Shown: one piece after another, positions 42,609 through 46,684 of the stretch | How the letters are laid out: every line of letters starts with the position of its first letter | How positions within the stretch are numbered: the first letter of the stretch is position 1 | NCBI GenBank assembly: GCA_963663405.2 | Contig: CAXXSM010000073.1 | Coordinates: 53,388 to 117,387 of the forward strand | Reading direction: 5' to 3' | DNA length: 64,000 nt | From: a bacterium | Lineage (GTDB): Bacteria; Hinthialibacterota; Hinthialibacteria; Hinthialibacterales; Hinthialibacteraceae | Translations under genes and position numbers: made by a program | Notes under the pieces: model-generated | What the model was told of the DNA's origin: nothing | The model's database searches: none | The model's input: only the letters and a program-made list of their open reading frames with translations

Positions 42609-43796
42609 CTATTCCAATTGCTTATACAGGATTTGCGCGAATTTGACTATCTCTGGATTCGAGTGGTTCCGCATTTGAAGAATGAGATCCAGGGAATCGA
42701 TCACCGGATCAAGGTTATCGGCGGCGGTGATAAAATCATCCGTGTGGAAAGGACCGGCTTTGTAAACCTGCACTTTGCGGGCGCCTTTGCCGGATGCGGT
42801 CAGGTCTTCCGATTTCGCGTAGTGCAAACTCCATTCAATCTCGTTATCAATGAATAGTGTCACGTATCGTTCCCGGCGCTTGCCGCTTTCATCCGCGCCT
42901 AGAACGGTTCCAATCCAATCGCCTTTCAGTTTTTTAGTCAATGCATCGAAATAAAGTCGATCCAAAGAAGGCAGATGAATTCGTTTCCGGACGGAAGGGG
43001 GAATGAGTTCCCCGGAAATTTCATCGACTGTCTTATACACGTGTTTGGCGTCGAGACCGGGGATTTCAACAATGGAGAATGTATCATATTCCGTTTGTTC
43101 CGCATGGAATAGTCTCCAATAATCCTCCCCTTCCTGGACGATGGAAAGGACAAAATGGTTTTTCTCGAATTGAGAATTAGGGAGAACACTGCCGGGAAGA
43201 TTTTTCGCCGCTTCATTCCAATTGTGGGCGGTGAATGAAAACATAAACGCAAGATCATGTTCTTGAAAACCGAGGATTCGTAATTCATCCAGCAAACCAG
43301 CGAGAGAATACGTTCCACTTTTATCAACTTCGGGTTCGGAGAGAAGACCGGTTTCATCGGTGGTCACGCAGGTGTAGAGCGAATAAGATCCATCTACCTG
43401 TTTCTCAACAGAATACAGAGCGTCCCATTCGCTATCCGCTTGATCTCCGGGAGCGCCAAGCCAAGTTCCAGGAAGTTTTTGTTTGAGAGTTTCTTGAACA
43501 AGGTCCTCTTTGTGAGGCAGACCGAGAATCCGGCGTTCTTCTTCGGTGATTTCGGGCGTATAACCGGCGCTCTCGTAAAGTTGGTGTAACGTTTGATAAA
43601 CAGAGACGGCGGACAGTGGGTGCGAGTGGAACACGTGTGGCGCTCCGTTTTGTTCTTGAATCGAATGAACGATCCAGCGCGCCGCATCTTGTTTTTCAAT
43701 GCTGACCGCGAGTCCTGAACCTTCCGGGTGCTGATCGTTTAAAAATAAGCCTGGCAGTTGGCCGATGGCCTCCCGCCAATTGATTGCCGCATTCAT
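42609..43796 (-). CDS. Hypothetical protein with an internal tandem duplication
   Basis: Long ORF; two halves starting NWREAIGQLPG and NWNEAAKNLPG; start at ATG 43796 is inferred. Confidence 0.65.
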   Translation of the reverse strand: MNAAINWREAIGQLPGLFLNDQHPEGSGLAVSIEKQDAARWIVHSIQEQNGAPHVFHSHPLSAVSVYQTLHQLYESAGYTPEITEEERRILGLPHKEDLVQETLKQKLPGTWLGAPGDQADSEWDALYSVEKQVDGSYSLYTCVTTDETGLLSEPEVDKSGTYSLAGLLDELRILGFQEHDLAFMFSFTAHNWNEAAKNLPGSVLPNSQFEKNHFVLSIVQEGEDYWRLFHAEQTEYDTFSIVEIPGLDAKHVYKTVDEISGELIPPSVRKRIHLPSLDRLYFDALTKKLKGDWIGTVLGADESGKRRERYVTLFIDNEIEWSLHYAKSEDLTASGKGARKVQVYKAGPFHTDDFITAADNLDPVIDSLDLILQMRNHSNPEIVKFAQILYKQLE

Positions 43797-43912
43797 TTGT
43801 TTATACAGTATCCTTTTTGTGCCGCAAAATCGGTTTGGTTGTTCTGCATTGTATCTCTTAAAAAGGGAGGAAACAACGAAGATATTTCTTTCTACTTTTT
43901 CTGTTTTTATTC

Positions 43913-43940
43913 TTGACAAATACAAGATTCATATTATTGT
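43913..43940 (+). promoter_or_regulatory. Sigma70-type promoter
   Basis: TTGACA-16 bp-TATTGT, preceded by T-rich sequence. Confidence 0.55.
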
Positions 43941-43971
43941 GTAAGTAACGCAGAAAGGAGGTGGTCCACTT

Positions 43972-44037
43972 ATGATAGATGATTATTATGAATGTAAAGA
44001 CACAAGCGTAGGTGGCTGCGGAGGTGAGGAGGGTTAG
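43972..44037 (+). CDS. 21-aa small ORF behind an extended Shine-Dalgarno sequence
   Basis: MIDDYYECKDTSVGGCGGEEG*, preceded by AGAAAGGAGGTGGTCCA. Confidence 0.45.
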   Translation: MIDDYYECKDTSVGGCGGEEG

Positions 44038-44144
44038 AATTTCCTGAATCGAAAGCGGATCAGAATTCCGTATTCGTTTGGGGAATGAAAGGGTAGAGTT
44101 CCATCAAAACTCTCCTGACTCTCTAGTACAAACAGTTAACCGGG

Positions 44145-44180
44145 AAGAAGGCGGTCAAGATTTGGTCGCCTTCTTTTTCT
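44145..44180 (+). terminator. Intrinsic terminator
   Basis: AAGAAGGCGGTCAA-gat-TTGGTCGCCTTCTT stem running into a T-rich tract. Confidence 0.75.
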
Positions 44181-44290
44181 TCTGAGCGGCATTTCTCTTT
44201 CTCTTCCCATATATCGTTCTCTCCAATTCGTTTATGATTAATCATGTGTTTTCCATCCACTCGAATTCTATATACAGATAAGGAGTCATC

Positions 44291-46684
44291 ATGCGCCTTC
44301 ATTCGTTTTATTCAATTCCTGTTCTCGTGTTACTAAGTCTGGTTTGCGGTTTAGTAGCCGCCGCCGATGATGCGGTTTTATTTGATGCGGAGGGGATCGC
44401 GGACGCGCGGATCAATGGATTTTCGGTCGAAAAAATTGGAACCTATACAGTTTGGATCTGGTCGCTTGCCAAGGAAGAAGTGATCGTTGAAATCAATGAG
44501 AAGCGCTTTGTCTCTAAACTGAAAAGCGATGCAGGGGATGGCGTTTATTCATGGAAGCGGCTTGGTTCTGTGGATTTAAACGACTCTGAAACCGCATCGC
44601 TGCGTCTTTATAGCGATGATCTTTCCAAAACACTGAAACCAAAACAGGTGGGATATCTCGCGTTGAATCTACATGCGGATTGGGATCCAGCCGCCTATTT
44701 TGCATTGACTAAAATATTTAACGATTCGGCGCGATCGGTTTCAGACAAACGTCTTGGTATCCTGCGTTCGAATCGGGATTATTATCCCTTTCCAGATTAT
44801 CAAACCAAGGATGAGTGGCTTCAACGAAAACGGGTATTGAAGACTCATCTCCTTAACAGTCTCGGTTTGTATCCTCTGCCGGAAAAAACGCCGTTGAAAG
44901 CGAAAATCTTTGATGTAACCGAACGGGAAGACTACACGGTCGCGAAAGCGTATTTCGAGAGTTATCCCGGTTTTTATGTAACAGGCAATCTATACAGGCC
45001 CAAAGGGAAATCCGGCCCATTTCCAGGCGTGGTATCTCCGCATGGACATTGGAGCAACGGGCGTCTTGAAAATGGGGAGACAGGATCGGTTCCGGGCCGC
45101 GCGATCAATCTCGCCCGGCAGGGCTGCGTTGTGTTTACTTACGACATGGTTGGATACGTTGACAGCAAGCAGATCAACCATCAATTCGGCGGCGAGCGGG
45201 AATGGCTTTGGGGGATCTCGCTGCATGGGCTGCAGCTGTGGAATGGCATCCGCGCAGTGGATTTTCTGCTGACATTGGATGACGTCGATCCAGACCGCAT
45301 CGCCTGCACAGGCGCGTCGGGTGGAGGAACGCAGACGTTCAGCCTTATGGCGGTGGATGAACGGGTGCGCGTGGCCGCGCCGGTGAATATGATCTCCGCG
45401 CATTTTCAGGGTGGCTGTCTCTGCGAGAATGGACCGAATCTACGGTTGGATGCGAACAATGTGGAATTCGGCGCGATGATGGCTCCCCGGCCCTTGCTAA
45501 TGGTTTCCGCTTCAGGGGATTGGACGAATGAAACGCCCCGTGTCGAGTATCCCGCTATCCGGTCGATTTATAAATTATTTGACGCGCCCGATCATGTTTA
45601 TTCCGTACAGATCGACGCGCCGCATAATTACAACAAAGACAGCCGGGAAGCCGTGTACGCTTGGTTTGGAAAATGGCTGCTGGGGGAAGAAAATACAGAA
45701 AAATTGAAAGAAAAAGAATTTACAGTCGAAGAGGATGAAGCCCTGCGCGTCTTCCCCGGTGATCTCCCTGAAGGCGCGGTAGACGCGGAGGAACTTACAG
45801 CGTATTTGAAAAAAATGTCCGAAGCGCAGTTGCAAGAGATATATCCAAATGACGAATCCGCGCTGCTGAGACTGCGCCGGATCGCAGGAACCGCCTTGCG
45901 GCATACCCTCAGCGCCCAGCTCCCGAAACGGAATGAACTTGTCATCGATCGATTGGTGGCGGAAAAGATTCCAGGGGCGTTTGTGGAACGAATGGTAATC
46001 GGCCGTGTGGGGAAAGGCGATCGAATTCCTGGGATTCTGGTGATTCCAAACGATCGAAAAGGATCGTCGTCCGGAACCGTTTTAGTCCATGAAGAAGGCA
46101 AAGCCGCGTTGACGGACTTGGCTTCAGGAAAACCGGGTGGGATTTTGCAGTGTCTCTTGGATGAAGGGCATGCTGTATTCATGCCGGATGTTTTTCTGAC
46201 CGGCGAATTCCATTCTCCATTCGAAAAAGCGATCCGGGATAAAGAGACCGCGCATTTTTTGACTTACAACCAAACGGATACCGCTTTGCGTACGCAGGAT
46301 ATCCTTACATCAATCGCCTTTCTGAATTCCCGCTACGAAGCGGAGACGGTGAACCTTGTGGGAGTGGGAGACGCAGGATTGTGGTGTTTATTAGCGGCTC
46401 CATTGGCCGATTCACTGCATAGTGTTGTTGTGGACGCGGCGGGATTCGATGGCAGTGACGACGCGTATATGAACCGGCTCTACATCCCCGGATTGCGGCG
46501 TGCGGGAGACCTGCGCGCGGCGCAGGCGCTGCTCGCTCCTACGCCATTGGTGATTTATAACACCGGCGGTGTCTTTGACACTGCGTGGGCGCGGAAAGCA
46601 TATGAAACCGCTGGTGTAGAAGAACGCCTTGAAATTCTTGAAGGGCCTGTTGGATTGGATGTTTTAACGAGATCGTTGCGGTGA
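44291..46684 (+). CDS. Secreted alpha/beta-hydrolase (acetylxylan esterase-like), two hydrolase-like halves
   Basis: Signal peptide; PGVVSPHGH, TGASGGGTQT nucleophile elbow, APRPLL and HNY motifs. Confidence 0.8.
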   Translation: MRLHSFYSIPVLVLLSLVCGLVAAADDAVLFDAEGIADARINGFSVEKIGTYTVWIWSLAKEEVIVEINEKRFVSKLKSDAGDGVYSWKRLGSVDLNDSETASLRLYSDDLSKTLKPKQVGYLALNLHADWDPAAYFALTKIFNDSARSVSDKRLGILRSNRDYYPFPDYQTKDEWLQRKRVLKTHLLNSLGLYPLPEKTPLKAKIFDVTEREDYTVAKAYFESYPGFYVTGNLYRPKGKSGPFPGVVSPHGHWSNGRLENGETGSVPGRAINLARQGCVVFTYDMVGYVDSKQINHQFGGEREWLWGISLHGLQLWNGIRAVDFLLTLDDVDPDRIACTGASGGGTQTFSLMAVDERVRVAAPVNMISAHFQGGCLCENGPNLRLDANNVEFGAMMAPRPLLMVSASGDWTNETPRVEYPAIRSIYKLFDAPDHVYSVQIDAPHNYNKDSREAVYAWFGKWLLGEENTEKLKEKEFTVEEDEALRVFPGDLPEGAVDAEELTAYLKKMSEAQLQEIYPNDESALLRLRRIAGTALRHTLSAQLPKRNELVIDRLVAEKIPGAFVERMVIGRVGKGDRIPGILVIPNDRKGSSSGTVLVHEEGKAALTDLASGKPGGILQCLLDEGHAVFMPDVFLTGEFHSPFEKAIRDKETAHFLTYNQTDTALRTQDILTSIAFLNSRYEAETVNLVGVGDAGLWCLLAAPLADSLHSVVVDAAGFDGSDDAYMNRLYIPGLRRAGDLRAAQALLAPTPLVIYNTGGVFDTAWARKAYETAGVEERLEILEGPVGLDVLTRSLR

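Follow-up and report, generated by a model that had tools for sequence, protein, structure and literature searches.

The stretch of bacterial DNA analysed here (the window, 64,000 nt in length, G000:C73:53388-117387; all feature coordinates are given as window positions) carries between two open reading frames (ORFs) a compact unit in which a promoter is followed by a 17-nt complement of the 3′ tail of 16S rRNA, a short ORF (sORF) of 21 codons, a second run resembling a Shine–Dalgarno (SD) sequence, a hairpin, and a terminator. Direct reading of the sequence places each of these parts at the position given for it in the initial annotation. As judged by comparison of sequences, the locus is a real, conserved, stand-alone small gene, predicted to yield a small mRNA of ~235 nt. 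Its features, including the strands of helices P1, H1, and H2, are as follows:

43913-43918, plus strand: −35 box TTGACA, read directly and found in the promoter scan
43935-43940, plus strand: −10 box TATTGT, after a 16-nt spacer; the two boxes show 10 of 12 consensus matches
near 43947, plus strand: predicted transcript start, placed by its spacing to the −10 box
43948-43951, plus strand: 5′ strand of P1, ACGC, at the extreme 5′ end of the RNA, with its partner at 44006-44009
43952-43968, plus strand: 17-nt complement of the 16S rRNA 3′ tail (extended SD, SD1), AGAAAGGAGGTGGTCCA
43972-44037, plus strand: sORF of 21 codons plus TAG, with the ATG 3 nt past SD1; peptide MIDDYYECKDTSVGGCGGEEG
44006-44009, plus strand: 3′ strand of P1, GCGT, inside the Ser-Val codons
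44011-44018, plus strand: 5′ strand of H1, GGTGGCTG, comprising the Gly-Gly-Cys codons
44020-44035, plus strand: second SD-like run and 5′ strand of H2, GGAGGTGAGGAGGGTT, with its core GGAGGTGAGGAGG at 44020-44032 and the stop codon at its end
44038-44107, plus strand: variable insert with a local hairpin (GAATT...AATTC) at ~44037-44070
44108-44124, plus strand: CU-rich 3′ strand of H2, AACTCTCCTGACTCTCT
44125-44132, plus strand: internal loop AGTACAAA (family consensus AATCCAAA)
44133-44141, plus strand: 3′ strand of H1, CAGTTAACC (anti-SD-like ...NACC), adjoining the terminator on its 5′ side
44142-44183, plus strand: intrinsic terminator hairpin and U tract, from the RNA fold; located at the same position in the related copies inspected

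The promoter motif alone is not significant, as the promoter scan finds two promoter-like sites within 2 kb, against 2.6 ± 1.9 in shuffles. The scan detects no antisense promoter beside the element, its sole minus-strand promoter-like site being located at 44824-44796. The hairpin at 44142-44183 is absent from the output of a consensus terminator scan. The length of the insert varies among relatives from 30 to 303 nt.

The host's own 16S gene is located on the minus strand at G000:C76:93360-94922. With the mature 3′ end placed at its assumed position (...UGGAUCACCUCCUUUCU; the gene reads ...GGCTGGATCACCTCCTTTCT and then AAGGAG), all 17 positions of the tract pair with the 17 nt that terminate the predicted mature 16S rRNA, in a 12-nt Watson–Crick run followed by one G–U pair and four more pairs. 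The complementarity ends at the predicted mature 3′ end; within the RNA it takes up nucleotides ~6 to 22 and spans the single-stranded tail in full. A search of the 8.44-Mb assembly for AGAAAGGAGGTGRTCCA (R at the wobble position, at most one mismatch) returns two sites, the element and the 16S gene, while the reversed-sequence control returns one. Watson–Crick runs of at least 12 nt to the 16S tail are found at 12 sites in the genome (10 of length 12, one of 13, and one of 14), so that long SDs are general in this organism and the unique part of the tract is its 3′ extension, GGTCCA. The longest other Watson–Crick complement, the 14-nt AGAAAGGAGGTGAT, is located outside the window at G000:C6:17125 (plus strand). 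Among 23 aligned relatives, pairing is kept in 389 of the 391 cells of the 17-mer, with all 17 pairs present in 21 of the sequences; the substitutions are mostly A/G exchanges facing a U, or C-to-U changes facing a G. Every 16S end assembled in relatives is of the A variant, which is seen in 15 of 41 genomes, and the G variant is seen in none. In many copies, an inverted repeat GTGGnCCAC (GUGGUCCAC; window 43963-43969), made by a G-for-A change, lies across the end of the tract.

Conservation was assessed with a blastn query comprising positions 43880-44290 against 40 relatives, followed by inspection of the matches, which form two blocks, one extending from the promoter to the stop codon and the other located ahead of the terminator. 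The complete element was verified in 30 of the 34 other genomes of the phylum. It is present in 18 of 19 genomes of family f1 (L005-L023 without L006, L007, L009, L013, and L017, plus L055, L060, L068, and L069; it is absent from G016, which is 86% complete), in all four of f2 (L006, L007, L009, and L013), in both of f3 (L017 and L052), and in six of the seven of f5 (L079 and L200-L204), a sister family; it was not found in f4 and f6, represented by one genome each. In most of 26 related copies a cTTGAC motif is located ~39-41 nt 5′ of the 17-mer. The related copies also contain the terminator and an ORF of 18-30 codons (18-29 in the order to which the window belongs, 27-30 in f5), and within the order the ATG follows the tract by 3-4 nt. 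The flanking ORFs vary between genomes, with the next gene on the opposite strand in at least five loci, and most genomes carry a single copy. The initial annotation had described a stand-alone mini-transcript whose extended pairing should apply to the host's own 16S tail and recur at homologous loci; the 17 paired positions, the conserved elements with their paired cells, and the motifs in place among unrelated neighbours bear out all three points. Exact matches to AAGGAGGTGGTCCA, found in 27 of 35 genomes, appear to be a mixture of real elements with chance matches or ordinary SD sites; the extra matches in G029 and G033 (L074, L075, and L078) are inside longer reading frames or have no start codon.

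The alignment further indicates structural selection on the RNA, in which the 5′ end is paired with the Ser-Ala/Val codons of the sORF. In this helix, P1, the four bases 5′ of the tract (GCGC, ACGC, GAGC, or ACCC) are matched by GCGC, GCGU, GCUC, or GGGU in the four bases ahead of AGGTGG. The cells are paired in 98.9% of cases, three of the four pairs show compensatory changes (11 cells), and the covariation score is reached by none of 500 shuffles; slid controls pair in 4-47%. The 26 nt of the ORF that follow (GGUGRCUG, GGAGGU, AGGAGAGC), which include the second SD-like run and the stop codon, have as their partner in H1 and H2 a conserved 3′ block, GCUCUCCU-GA-CUCUCC-AAUCCAAA-CAGCUUACC, that abuts the terminator. 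In H1 and H2 together, 93.4% of the cells are paired, compared to 36-55% with the partner slid. The fold of the RNA encoded in the window has an energy of −76.4 kcal/mol (z = −3.85 versus shuffles).

The reading frame is conserved as well. In all 26 copies a multiple of three separates the ATG from GGTGRCTG, at 10 distinct distances between 30 and 63 nt; stops interrupt the other two frames in 20 and 26 of the 26 copies, respectively. Maintenance of the frame across 10 different lengths would be hard to explain unless ribosomes read it, and the pattern marks the frame of the sORF as being under selection. The conservation of the codons themselves is of another kind. The third positions of TGC GGA GGT are invariant in 22 of 23, 23 of 23, and 23 of 23 rows, and the Ala/Val codon covaries with a base of the 5′ untranslated region. 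In family f5, where the tract is 15 nt long (GGAAAGGAGGTGGTC), the peptide ends with ...SASAGGWEGSPG in place of the ...SAGGCGGEES found elsewhere (GGWEGSPG versus GGCGGEES), and the SD-like GGGAGG is retained. The C-termini of f5 and L079 are equal in length, with 24 nt from GGC to the stop codon, pointing to substitution and not to a frameshift. As the C-terminus has been replaced while its length and the SD-like run have been kept, the tail of the peptide is evidently not what is conserved. The peptide is probably secondary, largely a by-product. A separate motif, GAYGACTGTA (Asp-Asp-Cys; A2 columns 36-47, window ~43981-43998), shows nucleotide-level conservation in most copies of the order and has a degenerate form in the window itself; no partner for pairing was found for it.

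A weak hint of expression is provided by four sequencing runs, all of them available as contigs, from which transcript ends, strand, and level are unreadable and in which uncovered parts are uninformative. Two runs labelled as metatranscriptomic, from two studies, contain contigs of 185 nt (43959-44143) and 165 nt (43982-44144) located wholly inside the element. Both stop at 44143-44144 without loose ends, and the same runs contain contigs of relatives; a near-identical DNA run spans the locus and continues past 44143-44144.

Among described systems, the element resembles the rre genes of α-proteobacteria. The rreB gene of Bradyrhizobium encodes a 165-nt stand-alone mRNA with a 14-codon ORF, in which the last base of a 17-nt complement of the 16S tail is the G of the GTG start codon (Hahn et al. 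2016, PMC5711450). The rreB RNA is weakly translated and sediments with 30S subunits, an association that depends on the first three nucleotides of the tract, which precede the canonical AGGAGG, and replacement of its start codon extends its half-life from ~10 to ~37 min (PMC5711450). The class has been reported from Caulobacterales, Rhizobiales, Rhodobacterales, and Rhodospirillales alone, with its function described as unknown (PMC5711450). Both rreB/rreR and the element in the window are stand-alone transcripts of ~165-235 nt with their own promoter and terminator, the latter as seen from the motifs and the variable neighbours; both have near the 5′ end a 16-17-nt complement of the 16S tail directly ahead of an ORF of 14-29 codons; in both, the genomic context is not kept between clades, and a hairpin can sequester part of the SD and the start codon. 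The differences are also clear. The tract of the window has one G–U pair, unlike those of rreB/rreR, and it does not end in the G of a GTG, since the ATG is located 3 nt later; it does so in the Eisenbacteria-labelled relatives described below, and an ATG start is found exceptionally in an Azospirillum rre gene (PMC5711450). By eye, the peptides are unrelated (RreB MSYLKRCHLAGIAR versus MIDDYYECKDTSVGGCGGEEG), and RreR-like ORFs from metagenomes (MSRVILERGVGTV...) are also unlike that of the window. In rreB the SD pairs with CACCUC inside the ORF, whereas in the window it is the second SD-like run that pairs, with the 3′ block beside the terminator; the P1 helix closing the 5′ end is a further difference from rreB.

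A second point of comparison is with the 5′ stabiliser SDs of Gram-positive bacteria (STAB-SD of cryIIIA), in which an SD-like tract near the 5′ end binds the 30S subunit and, beyond any part in initiation, affects mRNA stability. These are found in the leaders of long mRNAs, which they stabilise, whereas the tract in the window heads a dedicated mini-gene. The rreB RNA differs from them in that initiation of translation shortens its half-life.

Two Rfam families enter the comparison as well. The consensus of RF02471 (Ms_IGR-5, from Actinobacteria) has the same collinear blocks, with GGAAGGAgGugGuCc near the 5′ end, followed by GUGAGGUGgCugCc and by GCgAAUuCCccGcAGuCACC directly ahead of the terminator; on inspection, the window family presents the corresponding series of SD tract, GAGGUGGCUG, AAUyCC...CAGnyCACC, and terminator. 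In the Rfam structure of Ms_IGR-5 the 3′ part of the SD pairs with GCUGCC and the AAUUCC...CACC block is unpaired, unlike in H1/H2. RF01867 (CC2171, a small RNA, or sRNA, of Caulobacter) shares a 5′ 19-mer through metagenome loci and has another ORF family (MSH[CS]...) and another 3′ part. In the portions of the literature that were accessible, Ms_IGR-5 appears as an expressed, uncharacterised sRNA of Mycobacterium smegmatis (10.1101/2021.12.14.472595; PMC10454040), validated and NAD-capped, and is listed by name in Streptomyces and as IGR-5 in M. smegmatis; CC2171 appears as an expressed sRNA with an unknown function (10.1101/2022.01.24.477521), confirmed by Northern analysis in Methylorubrum. 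Those same portions contain no link of either RNA to 16S complementarity or to rre genes and, for Ms_IGR-5, no ORF. The copy in the window has no Rfam match (E up to 10 in a search of the window sequence). The best matches of RF02471 and RF01867 in the host genome are located elsewhere and reach 13.8 and 13.6 bits, compared to gathering scores of 45 and 75. The assertion of the initial annotation that no annotated feature explains the locus, together with the Rfam check it called for, therefore holds as far as Rfam matches are concerned, and needs qualification in that the rre genes, Ms_IGR-5, and CC2171 are relatives or analogues.

The wider distribution of the design was followed in genomes and in metagenomes. 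Species genomes were scanned with the tract plus TGYGGAGGTG, giving 28 loci, of which 15 belong to the window family (four of these records are titled Candidatus Omnitrophota), 10 to a compact family, and three are chance matches. The metagenome-assembled genomes with the compact family are titled Candidatus Eisenbacteria (8), Binatia (1), and Dormiibacterota (1). The compact family has CGCGGAAAGGAGGTGGTCCA-GTG and an ORF of 16-17 codons (e.g., MHKCGLSAVLNCGGGCS), the frame of which is kept through 3-nt indels, as well as GGAGGTGGCTGC, GGCGAATCCCAACAGTTCACCG, and a terminator. In the Eisenbacteria-labelled family, RNAalifold recovers an H1-type helix, GGUGGCUG:CAGUUCACC, and one genome of this type combines a G-variant element with an A-variant 16S end. 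The 19-mer is present in 33 of 201 sampled genomes of the Eisenbacteria-labelled phylum, including G060, with none in the control; a blastn search of PLSDB plasmids with the Eisenbacteria-labelled copy gave no match at E ≤ 1. The octamer GGTGGCTG of H1 is, in a by-eye alignment, the same octamer that is found within the second SD-like run GAGGTGGCTG of the GTG-type relatives, and the internal-loop motif directly 5′ of the H1 3′ strand is also present in Eisenbacteria-labelled and MDSCH-type loci.

In metagenomes, the 5′ 19-mer GAAAGGAGGTGRTCCAGTG identified at least 120 loci (L080-L199). Nearly all of the matches listed have an ORF of 12-31 codons starting from the GTG of the 19-mer, and their peptides belong to several unrelated families. 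At least six unrelated short-ORF families follow GAAAGGAGGTGRTCCAGTG, among them MSHCLSPRSPASVSWILAS.EV.., MTYSPTVICEVVAS, MDSCHKPCEVADA, MSRVILERGVGTV.., and MSYTKRCHLAGIAR; many of the ORF families listed have Cys/His near the N-terminus and GAGGTG (Glu-Val) near the C-terminus. In the RreB-type loci L113 (80-150) and L112 (81-151, minus strand), a tRNA gene is located just upstream (Rfam, 72.8 bits), in agreement with the tRNA-Gly neighbour reported for rreB. Among the 19-mer loci, RF01867 matches L082 (101.3 bits), L083 (88.8 bits), and L146 (75.4 bits) above its gathering score, and RF02471 matches others with 53.5-60.5 bits, also above its own. Below the RF02471 threshold are the relatives L153 (31.7 bits), L154 and L121 (29.4 bits), and L037 (19.4 bits), and also L114 (20.0 bits); L154, L121, and L114 share the 3′ block of the window family; L006, a relative within that family, scores 22.3 bits on RF01867. 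A hidden Markov model (HMM) of the window-family 3′ block was run against 130 loci (80.6 kb) that had been fetched without use of that block, and its matches are confined to the Eisenbacteria-labelled and MDSCH-type families (best E = 0.0015), on the correct strand and 100-190 nt past the tract. Through these intermediates, on the strength of the HMM and the sub-threshold RF02471 scores, we infer that the window family is homologous to Ms_IGR-5.

Structural comparison across families gives a more restricted picture. For P1-like helices beside both SD runs, the mean for cognate pairs is 3.7 bp (n = 34) and that for non-cognate ones 3.4 bp (n = 1090); as these are indistinguishable, P1 is claimed solely within the family of the window. 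One compensatory pair was seen by eye between L154 (CGCG:CGCG) and L114 (CGCA:UGCG). The duplex between the ORF end and the 3′ region reaches p ≤ 0.01 in 20 and p ≤ 0.05 in 38 of 104 loci, most of the strong ones being of the RreB type, and in a noisy comparison of cognate and non-cognate duplex energies among 16 family representatives the cognate partner is the best or second-best in some families.

Taken together, the element very probably belongs with the rre-like small mRNAs that have an extended SD. Rather than founding a category of its own, it adds new phyla and a distinct fold to this class. The best explanation of the locus as a whole is, on balance, probably an rre-like small mRNA in which the coupling of RNA and ribosome is the functional core and the peptide is largely a by-product. 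An RNA-centred function is favoured over one of the peptide because the design is kept across families while the peptides are not, and because the conserved codons are the paired ones. The mechanism itself is proposed more tentatively and could well prove incorrect. By analogy with the measurements on rreB, the 17-nt tract would tether a 30S subunit very tightly. Initiation would have to open the 5′ structure, either P1 or an alternative helix hiding the AUG, and a slowly departing ribosome would unzip P1, H1, and H2, terminating inside H2. Each event of translation would in this way remodel the RNA and, again judging from rreB, probably destabilise it. As to the cellular role, we would guess that the RNA reads out or modulates free 30S subunits and the capacity for initiation.

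Several observations weigh against this interpretation. All of its biochemical steps are borrowed from rreB, the ORF and fold of which differ (CACCUC in the ORF pairs with the SD), and the copy in the window matches neither RF02471 nor RF01867. One of the two RNA-labelled runs, X3, is flagged as probably DNA. The covariation in H1/H2 is low, with five compensatory cells and with 30 of 500 shuffles reaching the score, so these helices represent, at the level of the alignment, conserved complementarity and not proven covariation; in the window, the duplex between the ORF end and the 3′ region has z = −1.8 and p = 0.06 versus dinucleotide shuffles. The minimum-energy fold of the window RNA contains H2 without P1 or H1; CGUAGGUGG is instead the partner there of CCACUUAUG, which comprises the 3′ part of the tract together with the AUG, and RNAalifold applied to the 5′ half does not recover P1, giving two small local hairpins without covariation. 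The alternative helix CCACUUAUG:CGUAGGUGG pairs in 84% of the cells, with 33 of 207 unpaired and no compensatory changes, and is regarded as a possible alternative state; the region around AGCGYAGGUGGCUG may therefore switch partners. Finally, the Cys-rich N-terminal motif (xDDC) recurs, making a function of the peptide possible.

The last of these points leads to an unlikely alternative, in which the locus is a small-protein gene whose product is a Cys-rich acidic peptide, for instance metal- or redox-active, with the extended SD and the fold tuning its synthesis. Retention of the frame in every copy over 10 lengths would follow naturally from such a role, and the peptides have 1-5 Cys, a start of the form M-[ILQ]-[DE]-D-C recurring among those of the order, while an N-terminal Cys/His recurs in other families with the same 5′ motif (MSHC..., MDSCH..., ...KRCH...). 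The peptides of the different families are, however, unrelated; that of the window is acidic and hydrophilic, and searches of Pfam and NCBIfam found no match for it. The middle of the peptide is variable within the phylum, in sequence as in length, and CGGEE[SG] is replaced by WEGSPG in f5. The C-terminal codons that are conserved are those lying in P1, H1, and H2; their third positions are nearly invariant, the Ala/Val codon covaries with a base of the 5′ untranslated region, and no maturation or partner genes are conserved nearby. In the rre system, synthetic RreB and RreR peptides are unstructured, and strong over-expression of the translated derivative 14c-rreB, in which RreB is presumed to be over-produced, has no growth phenotype (PMC5711450). 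The initial annotation had put forward an acidic two-Cys peptide as one possible product, and that suggestion is weakened by the coincidence of the conserved C-terminal half with RNA pairing and by its replacement in f5.

Action of the RNA in trans on 30S subunits is improbable. In such a scheme it would cap or sequester idle subunits, as a sponge, as a guard of the tail against 3′ exonucleases, or as an aid to maturation or proofreading of the 3′ end, with the ORF serving for release. The complementarity covers exactly the predicted mature single-stranded tail, it is preserved through wobble-compatible changes, and the layout recurs in distant phyla. The co-sedimentation of rreB with 30S subunits, which needs the first three nucleotides of its tract, lends support by analogy to that part of the initial annotation in which the RNA was suggested to engage the 30S subunit (PMC5711450). 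The simple trapping that it also suggested fares worse: 20-fold over-expression of 17c-rreB, a ribosome-binding derivative, has no effect on growth, and ribosomes far outnumber the rreB RNA (PMC5711450). Most genomes have a single copy of the element, and selection on the reading frame would be left without an explanation.

A role in cis, as a ribosome-dependent attenuator (e.g., Cys-sensing) controlling read-through of the terminator into the downstream gene, is suggested by the order of a short ORF with Cys codons and a terminator, and by the alternative pairings around the AGCGYAGGUGG segment. It is nevertheless very improbable, and can be considered excluded, because the downstream genes differ among the copies examined and are often on the other strand (the five or more loci noted above); in the window, a separate SD and a gap of 110 nt lie ahead of the next gene, and no anti-terminator alternative was found. 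Chance, in the form of a strong SD ahead of a spurious short ORF, might be read into the frequency of long SDs (the 12 sites of 12-14 nt) and the non-significant promoter motif, but its probability is negligible and it is untenable, because 30 of 34 relatives, and other phyla as well, have kept the whole unit, P1 covaries, and the frame is maintained. Two further candidates were rejected, namely a precursor of a ribosomally synthesised and post-translationally modified peptide, as there are no adjacent conserved maturation enzymes and the neighbours vary, and a type I toxin–antitoxin system, as the peptide is acidic and hydrophilic and not of the hydrophobic membrane type.

Returning to the rre-like small mRNA, its occurrence extends the known range of a class so far described as an α-proteobacterial curiosity, since the design is kept, mostly in single copy, across almost the whole of another phylum, with similar versions that are Eisenbacteria-labelled or of actinobacterial type. 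Both the frame of the ORF and the RNA fold in which the end of the ORF is embedded are under selection. Two related-looking Rfam sRNA families have, in the accessible parts of their literature, been annotated without reference to the ribosome, and genes of this kind are missed by gene callers and by current covariance models. P1, H1, H2, and the second SD-like run are elements that can be mutated, and an rre-type role of the RNA could be tested in carriers of Ms_IGR-5 or CC2171. We can speculate further, although we consider it rather unlikely, that the element of the window, the Eisenbacteria-labelled one, Ms_IGR-5, and, by analogy, CC2171 and rreB/rreR constitute one ancient multi-phylum class, a dedicated ribosome-directed device docking on the tail of an idle 30S subunit, from which a single slow round of translation clears it. 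Its architecture would run from a 5′ closing helix through a full anti-SD complement and a tiny ORF to a second SD-like run, which pairs with an anti-SD-like strand, and then to a terminator. Were this so, the RNA could serve to report on, or to buffer, the pool of 30S subunits competent for initiation, or it could protect the 16S tail against 3′ exonucleases.

The neighbours of the element in the window are an AXE1-like esterase, an ORF without a Pfam match, and an ABC ATPase. The divergent ORF upstream (42609-43802, minus strand) encodes ~397 aa and has no Pfam match at E ≤ 0.01. The ORF downstream (44291-46684, plus strand), which has its own SD 110 nt past the terminator, is not kept beside the element in relatives. 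The 797-aa protein that it encodes has a hydrophobic N-terminal stretch resembling, by eye, a signal peptide, and shows a weak match to acetyl-xylan esterase (AXE1) of 26.2 bits, compared to a cut-off of 21.

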